Source: Candidatus Heimdallarchaeota archaeon (GTDB lineage: Archaea; Asgardarchaeota; Heimdallarchaeia; Heimdallarchaeales; Heimdallarchaeaceae). From it: a stretch of 20,808 nucleotides of DNA. The position numbers and the translations under genes are program-made. The first letter of the stretch is position 1. Each line of letters opens with the position of its first letter. The DNA lies in NCBI GenBank assembly GCA_021399395.1, contig JAAFKJ010000158.1:1-20808 (forward strand). The letters run 5' to 3'. The notes under the pieces were generated by a model. That model saw only the letters and a program-made list of their open reading frames with translations. It had not been told where the DNA came from and did not search any database. Below, piece by piece: positions 4,471-16,946 of this stretch.

Positions 4471-4492
4471 GTTCTTGAAAAATTTTCCACTA

Positions 4493-5536
4493 ATGAAAAC
4501 TTATACAATGGACAAGAAAGTTTTTCCTGAATTCATCAAATTAGTAAAAAGCAAAGGAAAACTTTTTGGTCCAATTAAGCAAAAGAATAAGTATTCTTTT
4601 GAAGAGATCAATGATTCTTCAGACTTAGACTTTGATTATCAAAGGACTATCATTGGTATTAAGAAATTTTTAACACCTCCTAAATACAAAACAATGATAT
4701 TCAACAAAGAAGGTACTGAAGATGTCTTTGATGGTGATGAAACTAATATTGTCATAGGCGTTCATCCTTGTGATATACATTCCGTGAAAATATTAGATAG
4801 ACTTTTCTTGGCAAACATTAAGGACCCATACTATGCTAAAAAAAGAGACAATCTAGTCATCATTGGACACTCATGTCTTCCAGATGACAACTGTCTATGT
4901 CATTCTACTGGAACAGATATGGTTGAAGATGGATTTGATCTCTTTCTTACAGATCTTGGTGACTATTATCTAGTTTGGGTAGGATCAGATAAAGGTCTTA
5001 GTCTTACAATTGCGGCTGATAATTTGCTCTCTGAAGAAACAACAGAGGAGAGCATAAGAGATTATGTAGCATGGCAACAAAAGCGATCCTCGATGTTCAA
5101 AAAAGGAATGCCTTCGTTCAAATATATGGCAGATATAATGAATTTAAATTATGACAGCGATGTTTGGGAGCAATTCGGAGAAAAATGTCTATCTTGCGGT
5201 ACATGTAGTCTAGTTTGTCCCACCTGTAATTGTTTCAATGTAGAAGATATTATTGCAATGAACACAGAAGAAGGATTTAGAGAACGACAACTAGACAGTT
5301 GTACATTACCATACTATTCTGTAGTAGCTGGAGATCACGATTTCCGACCCAATAGAACTGCAAGGTTGAAGCTTTATTATACTCATAAATTGAAGGATTA
5401 CATAGGTAGATGGGGACAACCAGGATGTGTTGGTTGTGGTCGATGTGTTACTTATTGTCCTGTTAATATTAATGTTGTAACAGTTTCTGATGCATTATTT
5501 GGTGAAGTGTGCGAAACTCAAGAGGTGTGTGAATAA
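4493..5536 (+). CDS. hydB: Group 3b [NiFe]-hydrogenase (sulfhydrogenase) beta subunit, Fe-S protein
   Basis: Motifs GVHPCDI, C..DDNCLC, CLSCGTCSLVCPTCNCF and GCVGCGRCVTYCP; first gene of the beta-gamma-delta-alpha order. Start moved to ATG 4493 based on TATA spacing. Confidence 0.93.
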   Translation: MKTYTMDKKVFPEFIKLVKSKGKLFGPIKQKNKYSFEEINDSSDLDFDYQRTIIGIKKFLTPPKYKTMIFNKEGTEDVFDGDETNIVIGVHPCDIHSVKILDRLFLANIKDPYYAKKRDNLVIIGHSCLPDDNCLCHSTGTDMVEDGFDLFLTDLGDYYLVWVGSDKGLSLTIAADNLLSEETTEESIRDYVAWQQKRSSMFKKGMPSFKYMADIMNLNYDSDVWEQFGEKCLSCGTCSLVCPTCNCFNVEDIIAMNTEEGFRERQLDSCTLPYYSVVAGDHDFRPNRTARLKLYYTHKLKDYIGRWGQPGCVGCGRCVTYCPVNINVVTVSDALFGEVCETQEVCE

Positions 5537-6396
5537 TGACAGAAGAAAATAAAATTAGAGAAGATCATTCTTACAGAGATTTCCCAGTTGAGATTATAGG
5601 ATTGAAAGATTTGACAAGCGATACAAGATATTTCAAAGTCAGATGTTTGAATGAAGATATGAAGAATAAATTCAATTACAAACCAGGTCAGTTTGTTATA
5701 TTCTCAATTCCTGGTGTAGGCGAAGCTACATTTTCCATCTCATCACCACCAACCAGAAGAGATTTTGTAGAGTTTGGTATGAGAAAAGTTGGAACGTTTA
5801 CTGAAGCGTTTTTCAAGTTAAAAGAAGGGGATGTCTTCAATATGAGAGGTCCGTACGGAAATGGCTTTGAAATGGAGAGCTTGAAAGGTAGAGATATAAT
5901 AATAGTAGCTGGAGGATTAGGCGCAGTACCTCTAAGATCTGTATTGTTATATGCCGAAGATAGAAGAGAAGAATTCAACCAAGTGTTTTTCTTAAATGGT
6001 GCTAGATCACCTGATGACATGCTATTTAGAGAAGACTTCATGGCAATGGCAGCTAGAGGAATCGTTGATACTCGTTTATCAGTTGATAAGGATCCAACAG
6101 GAGAATGGCCTTATGATGTGGGTTTTGTAACAACTTTGATACCTCAATTAGCAGAGAAGATAAAGGCTGAAAACACTACAGCTTTAATTTGTGGTCCTCC
6201 TGGAATGTATAGATTTGTTATACAAGAATTGCTGAAATTAAATGTTCCAAAAGACCAAATTTTGATGACATTAGAACGAAGAATGAAATGCGGACAAGGA
6301 CACTGTGGGCACTGCGTTGTAGGTGGTAGATATACCTGTCTAGACGGGCCAATTTTTACGTACTATGATGTTCAGCATGAGAAAGAGTTGATATAA
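5536..6396 (+). CDS. hydG: Group 3b hydrogenase gamma subunit (FAD/NAD(P)-binding, [2Fe-2S])
   Basis: Motifs KPGQF, FSISS, RGPYGNGF, AGGLGAVPLRS, ICGPPGM and ERRMKCGQGHCGHC...CLDGP. TAATG overlap with the upstream gene. Confidence 0.94.
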   Translation: MTEENKIREDHSYRDFPVEIIGLKDLTSDTRYFKVRCLNEDMKNKFNYKPGQFVIFSIPGVGEATFSISSPPTRRDFVEFGMRKVGTFTEAFFKLKEGDVFNMRGPYGNGFEMESLKGRDIIIVAGGLGAVPLRSVLLYAEDRREEFNQVFFLNGARSPDDMLFREDFMAMAARGIVDTRLSVDKDPTGEWPYDVGFVTTLIPQLAEKIKAENTTALICGPPGMYRFVIQELLKLNVPKDQILMTLERRMKCGQGHCGHCVVGGRYTCLDGPIFTYYDVQHEKELI

Positions 6397-6397
6397 A

Positions 6398-7192
6398 ATG
6401 TGGAAAAGAGATGAAAAGAAACCTGTAATTGGTATATTTGGATTTTCAGGATGTGCTGGAGATCAACTAGCAATCCTACATATGGAGGAACATACTGTTG
6501 ATTTCTTCACACAAGCTGATATCAAATTCTTCCATATGGCACAATCACATCAAGAAGTTCCTAAAGTAGATGTAGCCTTAGTTGAAGGAAGTATAAACAC
6601 TCAAAGACAATTAAAGGAATTAAAAGAAATTCGCGAAATGGCAGATGTTGTTGTTGCTCTTGGTACATGCGCTTGCTATGGTGGTATTCAATATCTTGGT
6701 GAAGATGAAGAAACCTTCAAAGAAAGAATGAAGTATGTTTATGGTAAGAATGGAGAGGTTCCTGAATTTCTAGATCTTGTTGGACAACCCAAACCAGCTC
6801 AACCTATCAGTGATTTCATTGAAGTTGATATCATGATACCTGGATGTCCTATTTCAGCAGAGAACTTTGTACCTATTTACACAAAATTGATTAGTGGATT
6901 AAAACCTCAAAAATATCCTATGCCAGTTTGTGTAGAGTGTAAATATGAAGGAAATGATTGTTTCTTATTACACGGCAAATTCTGTTTAGGTCCAGTTACT
7001 TCAGCAGGCTGTAACGCTATATGCCCAAGCTTAGATGTTTCGTGTGTTGGCTGTTTTGGTTCGTATGAAGGAGCAAACTTCCCAGCAATGATCGACAAAC
7101 TCAAAGAAATAGGTTTGACTGAAGAAGACGCAATTCGAAAACTGAAAATGTTCGGTGGAAATAGAGTTGAAGAAGCTCTAAAAGGTGATTAA
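6398..7192 (+). CDS. hydD: Group 3b hydrogenase delta (small, Fe-S) subunit
   Basis: Motifs SGCAGDQ, VEGSI, ALGTCACYGG, IPGCP, VCVEC, CLGPVTSAGCNAICP and CVGCFG. Confidence 0.94.
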   Translation: MWKRDEKKPVIGIFGFSGCAGDQLAILHMEEHTVDFFTQADIKFFHMAQSHQEVPKVDVALVEGSINTQRQLKELKEIREMADVVVALGTCACYGGIQYLGEDEETFKERMKYVYGKNGEVPEFLDLVGQPKPAQPISDFIEVDIMIPGCPISAENFVPIYTKLISGLKPQKYPMPVCVECKYEGNDCFLLHGKFCLGPVTSAGCNAICPSLDVSCVGCFGSYEGANFPAMIDKLKEIGLTEEDAIRKLKMFGGNRVEEALKGD

Positions 7193-7193
7193 A

Positions 7194-8480
7194 ATGGTAG
7201 AGAAAACAATAAGTGTTGATGTAATTTCAAGAGTAGAAGGCGATGGAGGAATTCAAGTATATACCAAAGACGGAAAAGTAGAGAAAGTACTAGTAGATAT
7301 CTTTGAAGGACCACGTATGATCGAGGCCCTTGTTAGAGGTAAAACTTACGAAGAAAACCTTTCATTAGTTGCCCGTATTTGTGCTATATGCACCGTTTCT
7401 CATAGATATGTTTCAATCAAAGCAATCGAAAAAGCTCTGAAAGTAGAAGTACCTGATAAGGTCAAATTACTTAGAGAACTAATGCATCTTGCAGAATTCC
7501 TTGAATCACATATTCTACATGTTTACTACTTAGCTCTCCCAGATTTCTTCAAACAACCTTCAGCAATAGCATTATTACCAACACATGGAGAAACAGTTGT
7601 TCAAGCTGTTACTATGAAGAAGTATGGTACAGAATTAATGCAACTTCTAATGGGAAGAAAGATACATGGTGAGAACCCTCAAATCGGTGGGTTTGGTCGT
7701 ATTCCAACAGATGAAGAATTAGATAAATTTCTTGAAAATGTTGATGAGTATAAATCTTGGGTGTCAAGTATTATTGACCTTATGGCTACTTTAGAAATTC
7801 CAGATTATGGTGTAAGAGACACTACATTTATGTGCTGTAATCCACCTGATGGCAAATTCGGTTTTGAAGGAGACACTGTTCTTATTTCAACAGGTGAAGA
7901 ATATCCTGTAGAAGAATATAAAAAATTAACCAACGAAAGGGTTGTTCCTCATAGTTATGCCAAAAGATCAAAGTATCAAGACAAACCATTTTCAGTACAT
8001 GCATTAGCACGATTATCATTGATTGGTGATAGATTAACTGGTGAAGCAAAAGATAAGTATGATAAATATTTCAGTGAATCTTGGAAATCTAACCCTATCT
8101 ACAATAACTTATGTCAAGCAATTGAAGCATTGTGGGCTTTTGAGCAAATCCCAATTTTGATTGAGAAAATAAAAGCTTTACCTGATTCAGAAATAGTCCA
8201 ACCTGAAGTCTTAGATGGAACAGCAACAGCTGCAGTAGAAGCTCCTAGAGGAATTTTATATCATACATATGAAATTAAGGATGGAAAGATTGTCAATGCA
8301 GATATCATAACTCCAACAGCTCAATTTTTGGATGATATCGAGGCTTACATCAAAGTAGCAGCTGATAAGTTGGTTGCAGAAGATCATCCTGATACAGAGC
8401 TTCATTTAGAAATGATAGCTAGAGCATATGATCCTTGTATATCATGCAGTTGTCATATGGTTAAATTGGTGAAACAATAG
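7194..8480 (+). CDS. hydA: Group 3b hydrogenase alpha (large, catalytic NiFe) subunit
   Basis: SRVEG, L1 motif RICAICTVSH, EAPRG, and L2 motif RAYDPCISCSCH followed by a 7-residue cleavable tail. GGTGA at 7184-7188 is read as the RBS for ATG 7194. Confidence 0.96.
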   Translation: MVEKTISVDVISRVEGDGGIQVYTKDGKVEKVLVDIFEGPRMIEALVRGKTYEENLSLVARICAICTVSHRYVSIKAIEKALKVEVPDKVKLLRELMHLAEFLESHILHVYYLALPDFFKQPSAIALLPTHGETVVQAVTMKKYGTELMQLLMGRKIHGENPQIGGFGRIPTDEELDKFLENVDEYKSWVSSIIDLMATLEIPDYGVRDTTFMCCNPPDGKFGFEGDTVLISTGEEYPVEEYKKLTNERVVPHSYAKRSKYQDKPFSVHALARLSLIGDRLTGEAKDKYDKYFSESWKSNPIYNNLCQAIEALWAFEQIPILIEKIKALPDSEIVQPEVLDGTATAAVEAPRGILYHTYEIKDGKIVNADIITPTAQFLDDIEAYIKVAADKLVAEDHPDTELHLEMIARAYDPCISCSCHMVKLVKQ

Positions 8481-8939
8481 TTGTCACCTTCTCTTTCTTT
8501 TTTTAAAAATAGGGATATTAGCCGTATTGCTTTTTTTTGTTTTGGTAATAGAGATAGAACAGATGATTCATTCGGTTTGTTAGTAGCTGATGAATTGGTT
8601 AAAATCTACCCTACTAGTGTTTTTTCTGAAGAAGTAGAAGATATATCTACCTTCCTTATAGATATTGTAGATACGGAAAGATATGATGGAATCGTGATTA
8701 TAGACGCAGTTGATTATGGAGCTCAACCAGGAACACTATTAATAACTTCAGACATATCCTCGTATATCAAATCAATTTCTAGTCATGCCATTCCACTTCA
8801 AGAAATATTCGAATTCGTCAGTTTAAAAAATAAAGATTTTCTCTTAATAGGATCTCAAGCAAAGTCTGTAGAATTTATGAAAACTCCTTCTGAGGAAATA
8901 CTCAAAGCAGTTGATAACGTGCTTGATTTATTGAAATAA
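8481..8939 (+). CDS. Hydrogenase maturation endopeptidase (HycI/HybD family)
   Basis: Motifs FGNRDRTDDSFG, IIDAVD and SSHAIPL. TTG start immediately follows the hydA stop. Confidence 0.88.
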   Translation: MSPSLSFFKNRDISRIAFFCFGNRDRTDDSFGLLVADELVKIYPTSVFSEEVEDISTFLIDIVDTERYDGIVIIDAVDYGAQPGTLLITSDISSYIKSISSHAIPLQEIFEFVSLKNKDFLLIGSQAKSVEFMKTPSEEILKAVDNVLDLLK

Positions 8940-8941
8940 GT

Positions 8942-9685
8942 CTAAATAAATATTAGAGGGAAGTTCAATATATTCGCTTTGTTCAAGCAGTAAAATGTTA
9001 CGAAGAGCGCTATAAAAAGTAGCCATACTAACACTCTGAACAAATCATTTAAAGCAAATCTAACACTCCTATAATGGGTTCGTTTTTGAATTCCAAATCC
9101 TTTGAAATAAAGAGATTGAGCTAGAAACTCAGATCTATAAATTATTGAAGCTATCAATATCGCTAAGACCTTAGGTAACCACCTGAAGAAACCTCCTTTC
9201 ATTTCCCCTCTTAGCCTTAAGGTTGTAAAAGTATCCTCTGCATCTCTGGCTATCCTTGGAATCATAATTAGAGCTAATGAAGGAATTAGTGCTATTTTCG
9301 AATTTATACGCATATTTTCAAAGAATCTTGTTAAATCTGATGGATTTGTTAGAGTAAAGAACAGAGAGAATCCTAGACCACCAATTAGTAGTCGAGAGAG
9401 AACTCTGAAAACCAGTATCCACCCTCCGAATACGTAAGTAATTGCTCCAAGAATAACTATCGCAGGTATTAAGGCATAAAGAATGCTCAAAGCTCCTTTG
9501 ATGTTTTTGAAAAAAATATTCTCAAAGATTACAATAATAACTAGTAACGCTAATACCCAGTTGATATTTACTACCATAAAACCAAACTGAATTAGAATAA
9601 TCAGAATCCCGATTAATGGATGAACATGTAAACTATCAGGTTTGAACATTAGACCTTGGTAAACTCTTCTAAGCATGAAAGACAT
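8942..9685 (-). CDS. ecfT: ECF transporter transmembrane T component
   Basis: HPL motif, hydrophobic helices, TLTNPSDL, IPRI and the coupling motif LRG; abuts the ATPase gene. Confidence 0.88.
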   Translation of the reverse strand: MSFMLRRVYQGLMFKPDSLHVHPLIGILIILIQFGFMVVNINWVLALLVIIVIFENIFFKNIKGALSILYALIPAIVILGAITYVFGGWILVFRVLSRLLIGGLGFSLFFTLTNPSDLTRFFENMRINSKIALIPSLALIMIPRIARDAEDTFTTLRLRGEMKGGFFRWLPKVLAILIASIIYRSEFLAQSLYFKGFGIQKRTHYRSVRFALNDLFRVLVWLLFIALFVTFYCLNKANILNFPLIFI

Positions 9686-11335
9686 TTAGAGTTCCCTCCT
9701 GAGATATTCGTTCAATTCTGATGGAGTTAGGAAGTGAGGTAATTTGTGCTGATATTGTTTTTCTAATGCTTGAATAAAACGTACAGTTTGATTTGGAATA
9801 AGATCTGTCTGATTCTCTAAAGAATAAAGTACTTTTCTGGGAGTATCCTCCATGAAAATATGGTTGTCTCTCAGAACTATCATCCTATCTAGATGTGGGA
9901 ATATTCTTGGATCATTGGATGCAATAATAACCATTTTACCTTCGGTTTTTGCTTTGTTTAGAAGTTTAAGAAGAATGTTTCTTCCATTTTTATCTAAAGC
10001 AATAGTTGGTTCATCTAATAAAATTATATCACTCTCAAATTGGAAAGAATTAACCAAAGCGATTAGCCTTCTTTCTCCTTCACTTAAATGATACAACTTT
10101 TTATCTATCAGATCTGTTAATTGCATCTCTTCGAAGATAGCTTGTGTTCTTTCTGAATCTTTCAATTCTCGTTCAAGATCTTTTCTGGGTGTTGGTCCAA
10201 TAAGAAAAAGTTTAGCGTTCTCAGGAATAAGTATAATACTTTTACTAGCACTCCTTACTGATTTGATTTTTTTATCTAAAATTGAAATTTTTCCTTTATC
10301 AGGTTTTAAAATACCAGAGATGATCTTGAATAATGTTGATTTTCCGCTACCATTTATACCTGTAAGACCAATTATCTGACCTCTTTGAAGAGTTAGAGAA
10401 ATATCCTCCAGAATAAGTGAACTTTTCTTATTATACTTAAAAGAAAGATTTTCACATTTCAGAACATCCTTATCAAATAGTTCTTCTTCTTCAAACAAGG
10501 TCTCAGATTCATTTTTAGAAATAAAGGTGCTCTTCAGCTGTTTAGATTGTATATCTATAGTATCCTCTAAGCTTAGATATGGAACATCATTTGAAGGAAA
10601 TTCTAGTAAACTTATTTCAGGAGGATCAATTTTTTCTAATAAGTGTAAATGCTTCTTAGGATCTCCATCAGCAATGAGTTTTCCCTTATCTAGAATGATT
10701 AGTCTATCTGCTTTTGATAGGATATAATCTAATCTGTGTTCAAATGCAAGAACTATGTGTCCATTTTCAGCAATGGTCTTCAGAAGATTTACCAATTCAA
10801 TTTCTGTTTTAGGATCTATTCTTGCTATAGGTTCATCGAGAATAAGTATTGATGGTGAAGCGGCTAGTGCAGATGCAAGAGACACTTTTTGAAGCTCACC
10901 AGAACTTAATTCAGTAATTAATCGATTTCTGAGATGACCTATGTTCAATTTCTCAAAAGTTTCATCAAGAAGTTTGTTTATCTTGTTTCTCGGTAAAGCA
11001 AGATTTTCAAGACTGAAAACAATTTCCTCTTCAACAAGTAAAGAAGTTGTGAAATCACTTGGATATTGAGGTACATAGCCTAATTGTTCTATCAAATCCT
11101 TTCTTGATAATGCAGATATAGATACATCATTGAAGGTTATAGATCCGCTAATTGTTGCTTTTTCAAATGATGGAATTAATCCGAGAAGTATCTTTGCTAA
11201 AGTACTTTTGCCGCTTCCACTAGGTCCTGCTACAAGTATAAATTCACCAGGCTTGGCTGAGAAACTAATAGAATTTAGTGCGAATCTTTTTGTTTTATGA
11301 TACTTAGCATTAAGATTCTCTACAACTAACATCAT
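9686..11335 (-). CDS. ecfA: ECF transporter ATPase with two fused ABC domains (A-A')
   Basis: Two Walker A motifs (GPSGSGKST, GINGSGKST), two Walker B motifs (ILDEP, LLDEP), and signatures LSSGE and LSEGE. Confidence 0.92.
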   Translation of the reverse strand: MMLVVENLNAKYHKTKRFALNSISFSAKPGEFILVAGPSGSGKSTLAKILLGLIPSFEKATISGSITFNDVSISALSRKDLIEQLGYVPQYPSDFTTSLLVEEEIVFSLENLALPRNKINKLLDETFEKLNIGHLRNRLITELSSGELQKVSLASALAASPSILILDEPIARIDPKTEIELVNLLKTIAENGHIVLAFEHRLDYILSKADRLIILDKGKLIADGDPKKHLHLLEKIDPPEISLLEFPSNDVPYLSLEDTIDIQSKQLKSTFISKNESETLFEEEELFDKDVLKCENLSFKYNKKSSLILEDISLTLQRGQIIGLTGINGSGKSTLFKIISGILKPDKGKISILDKKIKSVRSASKSIILIPENAKLFLIGPTPRKDLERELKDSERTQAIFEEMQLTDLIDKKLYHLSEGERRLIALVNSFQFESDIILLDEPTIALDKNGRNILLKLLNKAKTEGKMVIIASNDPRIFPHLDRMIVLRDNHIFMEDTPRKVLYSLENQTDLIPNQTVRFIQALEKQYQHKLPHFLTPSELNEYLRREL

Positions 11336-11361: not shown

Positions 11362-12192
11362 TTATACTTGATCTGAGACAGTCTCTTCTTCATTTTCTAT
11401 AAGTGCTTCATCGTCATCTTCATCTGAATGAATGATTCCAAGTTGTCTCAAATATGACACTATCGGAATTGCTATCGCTGCACCAAAGAAGACTTGAGCA
11501 ATATTAAATGGTATTTCTATAGCAGCACCACCAGCTCCAACTCCAAGTATGAAAGCTTGGTAAATAAAATAACCAACAACTATAATCATCCCTCCTAGAC
11601 TGCATGATATTGCCATTTCACCCTTCTCTCCCAAGAAGAAGGTTGCAATTATCATCAAAATACATAAAACTAGAGCTATTATCAACAAAACATATCCAGG
11701 AATAGTCAATGAATAAATCTTATCTTCATTTCCATAAAAAGTAGTTTCAACATTGAAAGATTGATTTGTAAAAATAGCTGAAAAAGTTATCATAAATGCA
11801 CTAAGAATACCAACAACGGAAATCTGAATCCACTTTTTAACCCTCTTGATCAAGTAAAACAAGTATCCTACAACAAATCCTTCTACTGCTTTCAAAATGA
11901 ATGTTGCTGGAGCATAAATACCATACCCAAGAGCTAAATCCGCAAGAGCAGCTCCCACTCCACCAGCAATTGATCCAGTTACAGGTCCTCCAATCAAAGC
12001 TGCTAAGTAAATAAAAGCTTCACCAATATTGAAAAAACCAGATGAAGAGGCAATATTCAGATAGAAAATGGATGTAGATAGAAAGACCAATCCTGTGAAA
12101 GTTACGATTAATGCAATGCTTCTAATTGAATTGACTTCTTTAACTAAACGCTCCCTTAAGATAATTTCTTCCTGAATTTCTTCTGTATTCAT
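11362..12192 (-). CDS. ECF transporter S component, resembling the PdxU/HmpT (pyridoxine/HMP) family
   Basis: GFFNIGEAFIYLAALIGGP...AGGVGAALADLALGYGIYAPATFILKAVEG and C-terminal EIPFNIAQ. First gene of an S-A-T cluster. The substrate is inferred. Confidence 0.88.
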   Translation of the reverse strand: MNTEEIQEEIILRERLVKEVNSIRSIALIVTFTGLVFLSTSIFYLNIASSSGFFNIGEAFIYLAALIGGPVTGSIAGGVGAALADLALGYGIYAPATFILKAVEGFVVGYLFYLIKRVKKWIQISVVGILSAFMITFSAIFTNQSFNVETTFYGNEDKIYSLTIPGYVLLIIALVLCILMIIATFFLGEKGEMAISCSLGGMIIVVGYFIYQAFILGVGAGGAAIEIPFNIAQVFFGAAIAIPIVSYLRQLGIIHSDEDDDEALIENEEETVSDQV

Positions 12193-12199
12193 AACTATT

Positions 12200-12213
12200 C
12201 AAGTTATAACTTG
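12200..12213. promoter_or_regulatory. Perfect 14-bp palindrome CAAGTTATAACTTG, candidate operator of the ECF operon
   Basis: Lies between the minus-strand TATA-like element (TTTTATTAA, 12220-12228) and the S-component ATG at 12192. Confidence 0.65.
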
Positions 12214-12340
12214 TATATATTAATAAAACTCTTTTGGTTTGAATATGAAAGGAAGAGAAAAGTTTCTGCAAATTGGGTCTACTTTAGTTTTCTAAAGAAC
12301 AAGTTATTCATAACAACACGCATTCTCTAATTTGAATAAA

Positions 12341-12682
12341 ATGAAAGGTAAAAAGCTTTTATTCGGATTCAGTGTCGTAATGGTATTCATTTTAGCATCA
12401 CAGTTCACCACTGCAACTCAAATTACACTACCTGAGACAACTATAGCTAATGAGACACCTTTGACATGTATAGAACAATTCCAATATCGCGTCTTGAATC
12501 TTACCGCAAATCATGAATGGCTTTTCAACATGTCACGTATTTGTGATGGTGAATGTAATTGTACAAATGAAATTCCCGACGGTGATCAACTACAAATAAG
12601 AGATAGAATTCAAGAACGTCTCCAAGATTGCGAAAATGCATTTATGCAAATGTTGCTCAATTGTTTTAGACACAATGAATAG
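12341..12682 (+). CDS. Small secreted/membrane-anchored Cys-containing hypothetical protein
   Basis: Signal peptide (MKGKK + hydrophobic stretch + ATQ), six Cys including CDGECNC, and QLQIRDRIQERLQD. Has an upstream TATA-like element and a downstream terminator. Confidence 0.75.
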   Translation: MKGKKLLFGFSVVMVFILASQFTTATQITLPETTIANETPLTCIEQFQYRVLNLTANHEWLFNMSRICDGECNCTNEIPDGDQLQIRDRIQERLQDCENAFMQMLLNCFRHNE

Positions 12683-12708
12683 AATAGAATTTCTATTCTT
12701 CTTTTTTT
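12681..12708 (+). terminator. Inverted repeat plus T-tract between convergent genes
   Basis: AGAATAGAA-T-TTCTATTCT followed by TCTTTTTTT. Confidence 0.55.
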
Positions 12709-12718
12709 CATTTTGAAA

Positions 12719-14056
12719 TCAAATGAAATCAATCAGATTTCTCATTTTCTCTAGTGTTTCATATCCTTTTGTAGTTAATTCAAATTCTTTTCTTTTAGCA
12801 GTTTTAGATGAAATAATTATTCCACGAGCTTCAAGCTCATTAAGATGTTGATAAATAGACTGGAGGGATTGAACTTTACCTAAAGAAACCCAAATTGAAT
12901 ATCCGTAAACTGCTTTTGCCGCAGCTATAAGATTCAGAATTTCAAATTTTGTAGTTGAGTTTTCCGACAAACCCCAGACTACTTTTTTCTTACCTCTCAT
13001 CTGAGCAGCATAAATATTCAATGCATTGAAACCAGAACCTGATAATATGGCCACTGAACTTGAAGCAGAGATTTTATTTTTATCTAGAAGCTGTTCAGCT
13101 GCTACCAAAACAGAAGCTGATGCAGGTTCGATAAATAGGCCCTCTTTCTTGGCTAATAGCATTGCAGCTGTTATCATCTCATCTGCTTTGATTTCTATTT
13201 CACTACCTTTGGTTTTGTGTAATATTTCCTTAACCTCTTCAAGAAGGAAAGGTTTCTCAATATTCAACGATTCTGCAAGATGAGATACTTTAGATTTCTC
13301 TAATGACACCGCATAAATTTCAGGAATCTTCTCAATCCAGCCTGATTCTTGCGCATCAAGAAATCCTTTGAAGATTGAGAATATTAAAGAACCAGCACCT
13401 CTAGGAACTATTATAGCAGTGATATTTTTAAGTTGAAGCACAAGCTCCAAACTTATAGTTTTCTGTCCTTCGATAGTTAAGATATTAACATCCGGTGTTG
13501 CAAGATAATGGTCACTTTTTGAAGCAAGTTCTTGTGCCTTGAGTTTAGCATCATAATACGTATCACCAATTTCTATTACCTTACTTCCAAAAATCTTCAT
13601 CTGTTCTATCTTAGATAATTCAAGATTCTGTGGAACAACATTGATAGTTTCTAAATTAGCTTTAGCTGAATATGCTGCAAGACTTATACCAAAGGATCCA
13701 GTACTAGCTCCGACTATAGTTTTCTTTTTCTTTTGAATTGCATCTGAGACTACTAGCGAAAGAGCACGATCTCTGAAAGATCCAGTTGGATTTCTAAATT
13801 CTAATTTCAACGAGAGATTGCCGTATTTTGGGATGTTTTCTACCTTAATCACAGGAGTATTTCCTTCGAAAAGAGAAATTGGTTTTGTAAAAGAAGGCAG
13901 AAACTCAGAAAGAGACCACATTGTATCCAAGTTTATTTTACTTGAGTGAGGACCCTGAATTGTAGGTACAAAAACAAGATTGTTACATTTTGAACATCTC
14001 AAAGAAGATTCTTGTTCCTTATGACACTCAGTACAAAGTGGTTGCTGTTTCCACAT
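12719..14056 (-). CDS. Threonine-synthase-like (PLP fold type II) protein with N-terminal Zn ribbon and C-terminal winged HTH; probable pseudoenzyme regulator
   Basis: CTEC...CSKC, SLFEGNTP, LKLEFRNPTGSFRDR (catalytic K replaced by R), EGQKT and EGLFIEPASA. The last ~80 aa are PadR/ArsR-like (FEILNL..YGYSIW..SLQSIYQHLNELEARGII..FELTTKG). Confidence 0.9.
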   Translation of the reverse strand: MWKQQPLCTECHKEQESSLRCSKCNNLVFVPTIQGPHSSKINLDTMWSLSEFLPSFTKPISLFEGNTPVIKVENIPKYGNLSLKLEFRNPTGSFRDRALSLVVSDAIQKKKKTIVGASTGSFGISLAAYSAKANLETINVVPQNLELSKIEQMKIFGSKVIEIGDTYYDAKLKAQELASKSDHYLATPDVNILTIEGQKTISLELVLQLKNITAIIVPRGAGSLIFSIFKGFLDAQESGWIEKIPEIYAVSLEKSKVSHLAESLNIEKPFLLEEVKEILHKTKGSEIEIKADEMITAAMLLAKKEGLFIEPASASVLVAAEQLLDKNKISASSSVAILSGSGFNALNIYAAQMRGKKKVVWGLSENSTTKFEILNLIAAAKAVYGYSIWVSLGKVQSLQSIYQHLNELEARGIIISSKTAKRKEFELTTKGYETLEKMRNLIDFI

Positions 14057-14104
14057 TGAGAATAAATAGAACTTACAAGATATAACATTTTTGTAAAACT
14101 TACT

Positions 14105-14305
14105 TTAATAGTCAGTTAATCCGAGGGGTTCTTCACTTTTATCAACATCTATATGACACTCATAGAGCTCTTCAAAGATTTCCTCAAGCTTAAATGACAT
14201 TGGATCTTCAAAGTCAAGGAAGAAATCCACATCCATATCAGCTAAATGTCTTAACAAAACAATCAACAATTCTTTCTCTTTAGGGGAACTAACAACTATT
14301 TTCAT
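14105..14305 (-). CDS. Small acidic hypothetical protein (66 aa)
   Basis: Fills the intergenic gap. Preceded by AAAGATTTTTGT, a promoter-like element also found at similar spacing upstream of the SDR gene. Confidence 0.65.
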   Translation of the reverse strand: MKIVVSSPKEKELLIVLLRHLADMDVDFFLDFEDPMSFKLEEIFEELYECHIDVDKSEEPLGLTDY

Positions 14306-14391
14306 TAATGAGCTTAAGCATCACACCAACAAAAATCTTTCTAAACATAGGTACAAGTTAAGAAAGTTAGCACTTAAATGAACACTGTTTG

Positions 14392-16201: not shown

Positions 16202-16894
16202 CTATTTTAGAAGTTTCTCTATTCTATTTCTATCTGTTTCTTCCAGTTCATCTAGACCTTTAACATTAGCTAAACTCAGTCTTTTCCAGAAAATACATTT
16301 TTCATGATTCCAACGATAGTTCAGATGGTCCTGATAATAATGTGGTTCGCCAATTCTAACAGTATTCTTCTCAATTTTCAGACCACAGCTTTTGCATGTT
16401 GCTCTACTGCTCTTAGCATACTCTGCTTTCCATTTCAGATCGTCATCATCCGAATCGGGTTCAGAGGCCGCTTGTTCTAGTATGGGATTGATAATTTCGA
16501 TTGGATTCGAGCCTCCTAAGAGACTTTTGTCTAATTGTAAGTGAAATGTATCATAATTGGACATTACGAAGCCTAATTTTGCGGGTTTGTCTAGTTGTAA
16601 TTTTTTCTCCACTACGATTTTTGGTGGTAAACTATTTTCTTTCAAGATGTATTCTGCACATGCTTTGGACATGTGTTTACTAATATCTCTCTTATTGAGT
16701 GGTTGATATTTAATTCCTTCAACTATACCATATGATGTCTGTATAATAGTTCGGTCTAGGTCTTCAATATATTCTCGTTCTTTTAAAACAACAAGGGAAC
16801 CATCTGGTATTTCTTCTGTTATTTGATAAATTTTGAAAGTTTCAGGATCGATGAAATGTCCCCACTCCTCATCGGGATCAAGTTGCATTTTCAT
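16202..16894 (-). CDS. Protein with unknown N-terminal domain and C-terminal PARP-type zinc finger
   Basis: WKAEYAKSSRATCKSCGLKIEK..VRIG...WNHEKC...VKGLDELEETDRNRI matches the zf-PARP pattern CX2C-Xn-HX2C. ATG at 16894 is preferred by TATA spacing. Confidence 0.88.
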   Translation of the reverse strand: MKMQLDPDEEWGHFIDPETFKIYQITEEIPDGSLVVLKEREYIEDLDRTIIQTSYGIVEGIKYQPLNKRDISKHMSKACAEYILKENSLPPKIVVEKKLQLDKPAKLGFVMSNYDTFHLQLDKSLLGGSNPIEIINPILEQAASEPDSDDDDLKWKAEYAKSSRATCKSCGLKIEKNTVRIGEPHYYQDHLNYRWNHEKCIFWKRLSLANVKGLDELEETDRNRIEKLLK

Positions 16895-16946
16895 AGTTAT
16901 CAACAGAGACAATATCGTTCTAGTTTTTATATTTTCTTGAAAGAAT

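Follow-up and report, generated by a model that had tools for sequence, protein, structure and literature searches.

A conserved operator-like element probably links a threonine synthase-derived winged-helix protein to a candidate vitamin B6 transporter operon in a heimdallarchaeal genus

In a 20,808-nt stretch of DNA from Candidatus Heimdallarchaeota archaeon (assembly GCA_021399395.1, contig JAAFKJ010000158.1, positions 1 to 20,808; hereafter the window), we found a conserved 20-bp operator-like element at the promoter of an energy-coupling factor (ECF) transporter operon, next to a gene for a threonine synthase (ThrC)-like protein with a C-terminal winged helix-turn-helix (wHTH) domain. We propose that these parts form a vitamin B6-responsive repressor-operator-transporter module, in which the ThrC-wHTH protein would repress the B6 supply route through the 20-bp operator; the probability of this reading is estimated at about 0.65. 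The B6 assignment is strongly supported because operator and regulator gene precede pdxS-pdxT, encoding pyridoxal 5'-phosphate (PLP) synthase, in sister genomes without the transporter. The window genome is 2.8 Mb in size, 34% G+C genome-wide and 81.8% complete. The parts of the putative module are:

12197-12216: candidate operator, 20-bp near-palindrome ATTCAAGTTATAACTTGTAT; genus consensus ATWCAAGTTRYAACTTGWAT
12200-12213: exact 14-nt palindrome CAAGTTATAACTTG, the core of the 20-bp element
12217-12238, minus strand: core promoter of the S-AA'-T operon, resembling a transcription factor B recognition element and TATA box (BRE/TATA), ccaaaagagttttattaatat on the minus strand
11362-12192, minus strand: ECF S component, 276 aa, PF07155/COG4720 type; candidate B6-vitamer-binding subunit
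9686-11335, minus strand: fused A-A' double ATP-binding cassette (ABC) ATPase of the ECF module, 549 aa, two ABC_tran domains (8.5e-58)
8942-9685, minus strand: candidate T (transmembrane coupling) component, 247 aa, weak CbiQ match
12719-14056, minus strand: ThrC-like pseudoenzyme with C-terminal winged helix, 445 aa; proposed regulator

An earlier note on this DNA had placed a perfect palindrome between the TATA element and the start codon of the S gene. The palindrome is exact and lies 7 nt upstream of the ATG (12192-12190, minus strand), with the BRE/TATA-like stretch on its far side; the BRE/TATA assignment is based on the archaeal promoter consensus. On its own the palindrome is unremarkable. 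There are five perfect 14-nt palindromes in the window and 246 in the genome, and windows simulated with a first-order Markov model hold 2.3 on average, and 89% of them have at least one. The palindrome pattern with up to three mismatches matches three times in the window against 2.0 expected (34 of 100 shuffles give three or more), and with up to two mismatches it finds 23 sites in the whole genome against 29 for the reversed control pattern. The weight of this site comes from its position and its conservation. The comparison set consisted of 24 genomes of the same genus, or 25 with the window genome (G000-G024), and 16 other genomes of the same order. Upstream of S, CAAG-N6-CTTG directly follows the BRE/TATA block in 16/16 genus relatives, and the S promoters of the genus share a conserved block ccaaaaRagttWtaWt just upstream of the element. 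Mean pairwise identity in register is 0.88 for the element, 0.68 to 0.71 for the BRE/TATA block and 0.33 to 0.42 for the farther flanks. A 20-bp position weight matrix (PWM) was built from the 16 genus S-promoter sites. Scanning the window genome with it returned the operator as the only strong match (30.6 bits; next best 20.0). Neither the PWM nor a search with the 14-mer found a further promoter site in this genome, and the five runners-up examined all lie inside open reading frames (ORFs). Searches for extra operator sites in four Bathyarchaeia genomes gave only the known S-gene site in three and none in the fourth at the stringency used; other matches were in ORFs or unremarkable. The 20-bp element thus looks like a functional, conserved operator-like site at the ECF promoter.

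The gene content of the genus ties this element to B6 supply. Of the 24 genus relatives, 22 carry a ThrC-wHTH gene that is complete or truncated only where a contig stops, and 16 carry the S gene; each gene is found in 0/16 of the other same-order genomes. In 14 of the 17 S-bearing genomes (window genome included), S follows closely behind the regulator gene on a shared contig and strand; the other three are split at contig ends. pdxS was found in four of the 25 genus genomes (G004, G007, G015 and G022), all without S, and in none of the 17 with S. It lies about 180 bp downstream of the regulator gene in G015, about 1.3 kb downstream in G022, and 10 kb away on the same contig in G004. Pfam confirmed the identity of pdxS and pdxT in G022 (2e-94 and 1.4e-50). 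In the window genome, PdxS, PdxT and a PF08543 kinase were not found. The earlier note had suggested looking for operator-like sites upstream of pdx genes in relatives, and they are there: the element stands behind the same BRE/TATA block in 4/4 genus pdxS promoters, as follows.

G007 pdxS promoter: two exact element copies in tandem
G022 pdxS promoter: two exact element copies in tandem
G004 pdxS promoter: one exact and one degenerate element copy
G015 pdxS promoter: a single degenerate element copy

The PWM scores of the four promoters are 31.3, 24.6, 19.5 and 7.4. Same-order genomes that lack the regulator were scored as well: in 15 pdxS upstream regions taken from 14 of them, the best scores range from -1.2 to -15.9 and no core motif is seen. 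Because the element occurs in 4/4 of the former regions and 0/15 of the latter, we conclude that it travels with the regulator and precedes whichever B6 supply genes are present.

The association extends beyond the genus. A scan of species-representative genomes returned at least 589 family loci; among the matches listed these are mostly from Bathyarchaeia, with others from Desulfurococcales, Asgard groups and Methanomicrobia. Synteny was counted in the best 80, where 62 have an S homologue adjoining the regulator gene: 55 lie immediately 3' of it in the same orientation, six are convergent and one is divergent. The synteny of ThrC-wHTH and ECF genes raised by the earlier note is therefore found both inside and outside the genus. 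Lineage-specific intergenic palindromes occur, for example TAGTATAGTTATAACTATACTA in Bathyarchaeia and AAAGTTTAAACTTT in Desulfurococcales, which have an AGTT-NN-AACT core in common with the Heimdall element. This core is present without mismatch in 33 of 55 regulator-S intergenic regions versus 0.24 expected in shuffles. Even where S and the regulator gene are unlinked, tandem operator elements stand in front of S, as seen in G047 and in the complete genome of Heimdallarchaeum endolithica; a Baldrarchaeota genome has them ahead of an S-pdxS cluster. PdxS was found in 0/5 other genomes carrying both regulator and S, including the complete genome of Promethearchaeum syntrophicum. At one locus, L093, the regulator gene is followed by TAGTATAGCTGCAACTATACTA and this in turn by pdxS-pdxT, and the same element precedes S in Bathyarchaeia; L093 is an independent repeat, in another lineage, of the operator at pdxS-pdxT. 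This contig is labelled Candidatus Limnocylindrales bacterium, yet it carries an archaeal ThrC-wHTH gene and a Bathyarchaeia-type operator. Mis-binning of an archaeal contig or transfer of the genes into a bacterium would explain this.

The proposed regulator is a threonine synthase relative that has lost the catalytic lysine. Its PALP match (2.1e-57) places it in the fold-type II PLP-enzyme family, in agreement with an AlphaFold2 (AF2) model and a Foldseek search. PadR-like (PF03551) and HTH_45 matches cover residues 373-444 and fall under their cut-offs (24.6 bits versus 27 and 21.3 versus 25.5); PF03551 is in the precomputed annotation of many relatives. Aligned to solved threonine synthases over residues 50-348, the protein reads NPTGSFRDR where these have SFKDR (the Lys of 2D1F and 6CGQ), so the lysine of the NPTGSFKDR motif expected of an active threonine synthase is replaced. 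Among 120 homologues the PLP-lysine position is Arg in 114 of 115 non-canonical relatives and Lys in five short canonical ThrC proteins (P0117-P0121). The NCBIfam equivalog cut-offs are not reached (PRK05638, 277.9 bits versus 421; TIGR00260, 125.8 versus 167.1). The glycine-rich phosphate loop and most other ThrC pocket invariants are retained. The AF2 model (mean predicted local distance difference test score, pLDDT, 86.8) shows a ThrC fold at residues 1-352, a disordered linker at 353-365 and a wHTH at 365-444, the last with helices 365-378, 385-391 and 398-410, strands 414-419 and 422-427, and helix 429-444. The top Foldseek matches are the threonine synthases 6NMX, 2ZSJ and 1UIM, with a template modelling (TM) score to the target of about 0.8. 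In the recognition helix His404 is invariant and Tyr402 and Gln403 are near-invariant, which fits the conserved AGTT-NN-AACT core of the DNA. The description of this protein as a pseudoenzyme regulator in the earlier note agrees with the SFRDR sequence and the C-terminal wHTH. Because Arg replaces the Schiff-base lysine while the PLP pocket is kept, we infer that the protein is a sensor and not an enzyme. The window genome also holds separate canonical ThrC-like genes (C41 and C161). Second partial copies of the regulator gene are present on other contigs in G012 (C101 and C46) and G019 (C255 and C37); these may be strain mixtures, assembly splits or duplications.

The S protein belongs to PF07155/COG4720 (9.5e-20, 71.7 bits versus a cut-off of 26.7). 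A likeness to the pyridoxine/hydroxymethylpyrimidine (HMP) family had been proposed, and the closest solved relative is indeed chain S of 4HZU, PdxU2/HmpT of Lactobacillus brevis (E 2.6e-7). PdxU and PdxU2/HmpT are both placed in COG4720/PF07155 in PMC9997740, and pyridoxamine is reported as the PdxU2/HmpT substrate in PMC4860826. The latter names Glu41, His84, Gln87, Tyr120, Asn140 and Gln143 as HmpT pocket residues; in a phmmer alignment the equivalents of Glu41, Tyr120, Asn140 and Gln143 are kept (4/6). The window protein is larger than chain S of 4HZU (276 versus 166 aa); it has some 80 inserted residues, is extended at the N terminus and carries an acidic tail. A further difference from PdxU2/HmpT is the dedicated AA'-T module encoded in the same operon. 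The top NCBIfam matches of the fused ATPase are ECF ATPase models, all under their own cut-offs. The T candidate matches CbiQ at E 0.0022 (18.1 bits, under the cut-off of 25), lies directly 3' of the ATPase gene, and keeps this gene order in relatives (L062-L064). An S protein, two ABC domains and a T candidate are thus encoded together, as in a dedicated (group I) ECF operon. The link of S to B6 genes is genomic and regulatory: it has operator and regulator in common with pdxST, excludes pdxS within the genus, and clusters with pdxS in Baldrarchaeota. The earlier note had called the module putatively vitamin B6-sensing; the operator at pdxS-pdxT strongly supports B6, and the exchange of S for pdxST disfavors HMP as the substrate.

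In archaeal promoters, a position downstream of the TATA box is the usual one for a repressor, and activators usually bind upstream of the BRE. ThrC enzymes are homodimers. The operator (12197-12216) would have the TATA box of the S-AA'-T operon on one side and its expected transcript start on the other; there a dimer of the ThrC-wHTH protein, bound to the inverted repeat, would block recruitment of the polymerase. The regulator is predicted to bind PLP or a related B6 vitamer non-covalently, without a Schiff base, and the ligand would most likely act as a co-repressor, giving repression when B6 is plentiful. The target would be the B6 supply route of the species, namely the ECF importer in the window genome (where PLP synthase was not found), with its S subunit as a distant PdxU/PdxU2 relative, and pdxS-pdxT in the sister species.

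Several observations weigh against this proposal. Four genus genomes show neither S nor pdxS, and the genomes are 63 to 94% complete, so absence of pdxS here means "not found". Kin genomes are not independent of each other, and the genus-level counts overstate the support. In the best 80 loci, 18 have no S nearby; eight of these had the full 6-kb downstream flank and several others were cut by contig ends. Loki-type sites are only half-palindromic. The likeness of S to PdxU2/HmpT is weak (E 2.6e-7), and two of the six HmpT pocket residues are changed (His84 to Lys, Gln87 to Glu). One wHTH-bearing relative, P0113, keeps the lysine (NPTNSFKDR), the only one seen to do so; it is possibly an intermediate or a still-active form. 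PF08543, the PdxK/ThiD-type kinase family, is above cut-off in 0/25 genus genomes. Because this kinase was not found, a simple salvage by import and then phosphorylation is incomplete. The importer may take up a phosphorylated vitamer, a possibility raised because pyridoxal kinase was not found. The absence of PF08543 is also a gap in HMP phosphorylation for thiamine.

Other explanations were weighed against the same data. The element could be a true B6-regulon operator on which the ThrC-wHTH protein activates transcription, plays a dual role, as bacterial PdxR does at pdxST, or binds in its ligand-free form. We consider this unlikely, though it is the likeliest of the alternatives. The sign of regulation is one that we infer, and the tandem sites at pdxS promoters could serve cooperative or architectural roles; activation does not fit well with a site placed past the TATA-like element and extending to the expected start site. 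Bacterial PdxR is a positive regulator of pdxST, going by titles cited in PMC9997740. It is more doubtful that a different transcription factor binds the operator and that the ThrC-wHTH protein is linked to S in some other way, for example as a chaperone or sensor on the transporter or at another promoter. Binding by this protein is only predicted, operators also occur at unlinked S genes, and the promoter of the regulator gene itself has no site. A different factor would have to account for an element that is found at pdxS only in regulator-bearing genomes (the 4/4 versus 0/15 regions above), for a regulator-S pair that stays adjacent across phyla in 62 of the best 80 loci, and for a conserved recognition helix that parallels the conserved core.

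The compound sensed and imported by the module might not be B6; HMP, riboflavin and amino-acid derivatives like O-phosphohomoserine are examples, and the pdxST link would then be secondary. PF07155 takes its name from riboflavin S components and has HmpT-type proteins among its members, the sensor derives from threonine synthase, whose substrate is O-phosphohomoserine, and pyridoxal kinase was not found. Set against these points are the operator and regulator in front of pdxS-pdxT in two independent lineages, the mutual exclusion of S and pdxS in the genus together with the failure to find pdxS in the other S-bearing genomes, the Baldrarchaeota cluster, and the binding of pyridoxamine by the best solved relative of S as reported in PMC4860826. 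A non-B6 ligand is thus improbable, slightly more so than a different DNA-binding factor. The last alternative, a palindrome that arose by chance or belongs to a generic core promoter, is largely refuted and has a very small probability. This AT-rich DNA does contain many perfect 14-nt palindromes, as counted above, and the local TATA consensus AGTTATAA is similar to the center of the element; most copies, on the other hand, have G/C at the center and are not TATA-like. The element is kept at all 16 S and all four pdxS promoters while the flanks diverge, is unique in the genome, and is found neither at the regulator's own promoter nor in the 15 outgroup pdxS promoters.

The proposal of a B6-responsive repressor does not extend to autoregulation. 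The earlier note had described a shared operator, with a second copy at the promoter of the regulator gene:

14076-14089: candidate second site CAAGATATAACATT, three mismatches; the TATA region of the regulator's own promoter

The first site is conserved at the ECF promoter; the second is the TATA box and is not conserved as an operator. Among the regulator promoters of the genus genomes listed, only the TATA-like aRAGTTATAT is conserved and the CTTG is not, which bears out the caution, given in the earlier note itself, that the TATA box inflates the match. The half-site CAAGTTA is present at 14354-14360 as described, but it is at chance level and not conserved. No operator-like PWM match of 6 bits or more was found within 700 nt upstream of the regulator gene in 21/21 genus genomes. 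Autoregulation through the operator motif was rejected, since neither the upstream alignment nor the PWM scan shows anything beyond the TATA box.

Two small ORFs flank the regulator gene:

14105-14305, minus strand: acidic ORF, 66 aa, directly upstream of the regulator gene; no Pfam or NCBIfam match
12332-12682, plus strand: Cys-rich ORF, 116 aa, between the regulator gene and the ECF operon; signal-like N-terminus; no Pfam match

In the genus genomes listed, as well as in six named Heimdall loci, the coding sequence of the acidic ORF comes before the regulator gene; it was not found in Loki or Bathyarchaeia loci. It may be co-transcribed with the regulator gene and be part of the module. A second inverted repeat, CTTTAG-TTTT-CTAAAG, is found at 12282-12297, about 45 nt upstream of the ATG (12343) of the 116-aa ORF. 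It recurs as ctttagaaaactaaag in at least nine genus genomes, and a variant form adjoins pdxS in G022. Farther away, 16202-16912 (minus strand) encodes a 236-aa protein with a zinc finger of the poly(ADP-ribose) polymerase (PARP)/DNA-ligase type (PF00645, 5.5e-15, above cut-off) in this Asgard archaeon. A hydrogenase cluster at 4475-8939 (plus strand) encodes a Fer4_22 protein, an FAD/NAD-binding protein, an Oxidored_q6 small subunit, a NiFe large subunit and a HycI-type maturation protease; we take it to resemble a cytosolic group-3-type NiFe hydrogenase. A bacterial-type promoter scan of the window gave seven promoter-like matches versus 13.4 expected and no terminators; the bacterial models are uninformative for an archaeal host.

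The closest functional parallel is PdxR, a member of the MocR subfamily of GntR regulators in Firmicutes and Actinobacteria. Like the Heimdall protein, PdxR is described as a transcription factor that combines a PLP-enzyme fold with a winged helix (PMC5320631), and it controls pdxST and/or the ECF S gene pdxU (pdxK-pdxU), often from a neighboring gene and through repeated or inverted boxes (PMC5320631; PMC11619246). The parts differ. PdxR carries an N-terminal GntR-type wHTH and a fold-type I aminotransferase domain with reported PLP binding (PMC5320631), whereas the Heimdall regulator has a fold-type II ThrC domain with the Lys to Arg change and a C-terminal PadR-like wHTH; no GntR or aminotransferase match was found in the 445-aa protein. 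The two are analogous, not homologous, and by this analogy the module would work like bacterial PdxR with pdxST or pdxKU, built from different parts. MocR-type B6 regulators are absent from Archaea according to PMC5320631. RbkR, a riboflavin kinase with a wHTH, is also an archaeal fusion of a vitamin enzyme and a DNA-binding domain that controls synthesis and transport genes for that vitamin (PMC5397151). It differs from the Heimdall regulator in the vitamin, in the enzyme fold, and in being bifunctional with its enzyme activity kept, while the Heimdall protein has no catalytic lysine. With archaeal-type ThrC the regulator shares the fold, an N-terminal Cys4 zinc ribbon and most invariant pocket residues; it differs in the Lys to Arg change, a GSG-type in place of a GNAGN phosphate loop, and about 90 extra C-terminal residues that form the wHTH. 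A full-text literature search, with subscription journals and the supplements of PMC5320631 and PMC9997740 outside its scope, found no description of a ThrC-wHTH regulator or of an archaeal B6 regulator. The ThrC fusion in PMC11237513 is CysH-ThrC, which is different from ThrC-wHTH. Only three B6/PLP transporters have been characterized in prokaryotes, an area called poorly studied in PMC9997740.

A broader version of the proposal, for which we see the balance as slightly favorable, is that ThrC-derived pseudoenzymes with the Lys to Arg change and a C-terminal winged helix act across Archaea as the B6 sensor-repressor in place of MocR/PdxR. The one-gene regulon would then mark an unrecognized B6 importer, and many lineages of Asgard archaea and Bathyarchaeia would be B6 auxotrophs dependent on their neighbors, the cultured Promethearchaeum syntrophicum among them. 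If the reading is true, an archaeal B6 regulator, its operator and its transporter would be defined together, with relatives in at least 589 loci, and the protein would show clearly how one change of a catalytic residue plus a domain fusion can make a sensor out of an enzyme. The B6 dependence of hard-to-grow Asgard archaea would be flagged, which suggests a concrete medium supplement. The finding would point to an undescribed and widespread B6 control switch in Archaea.

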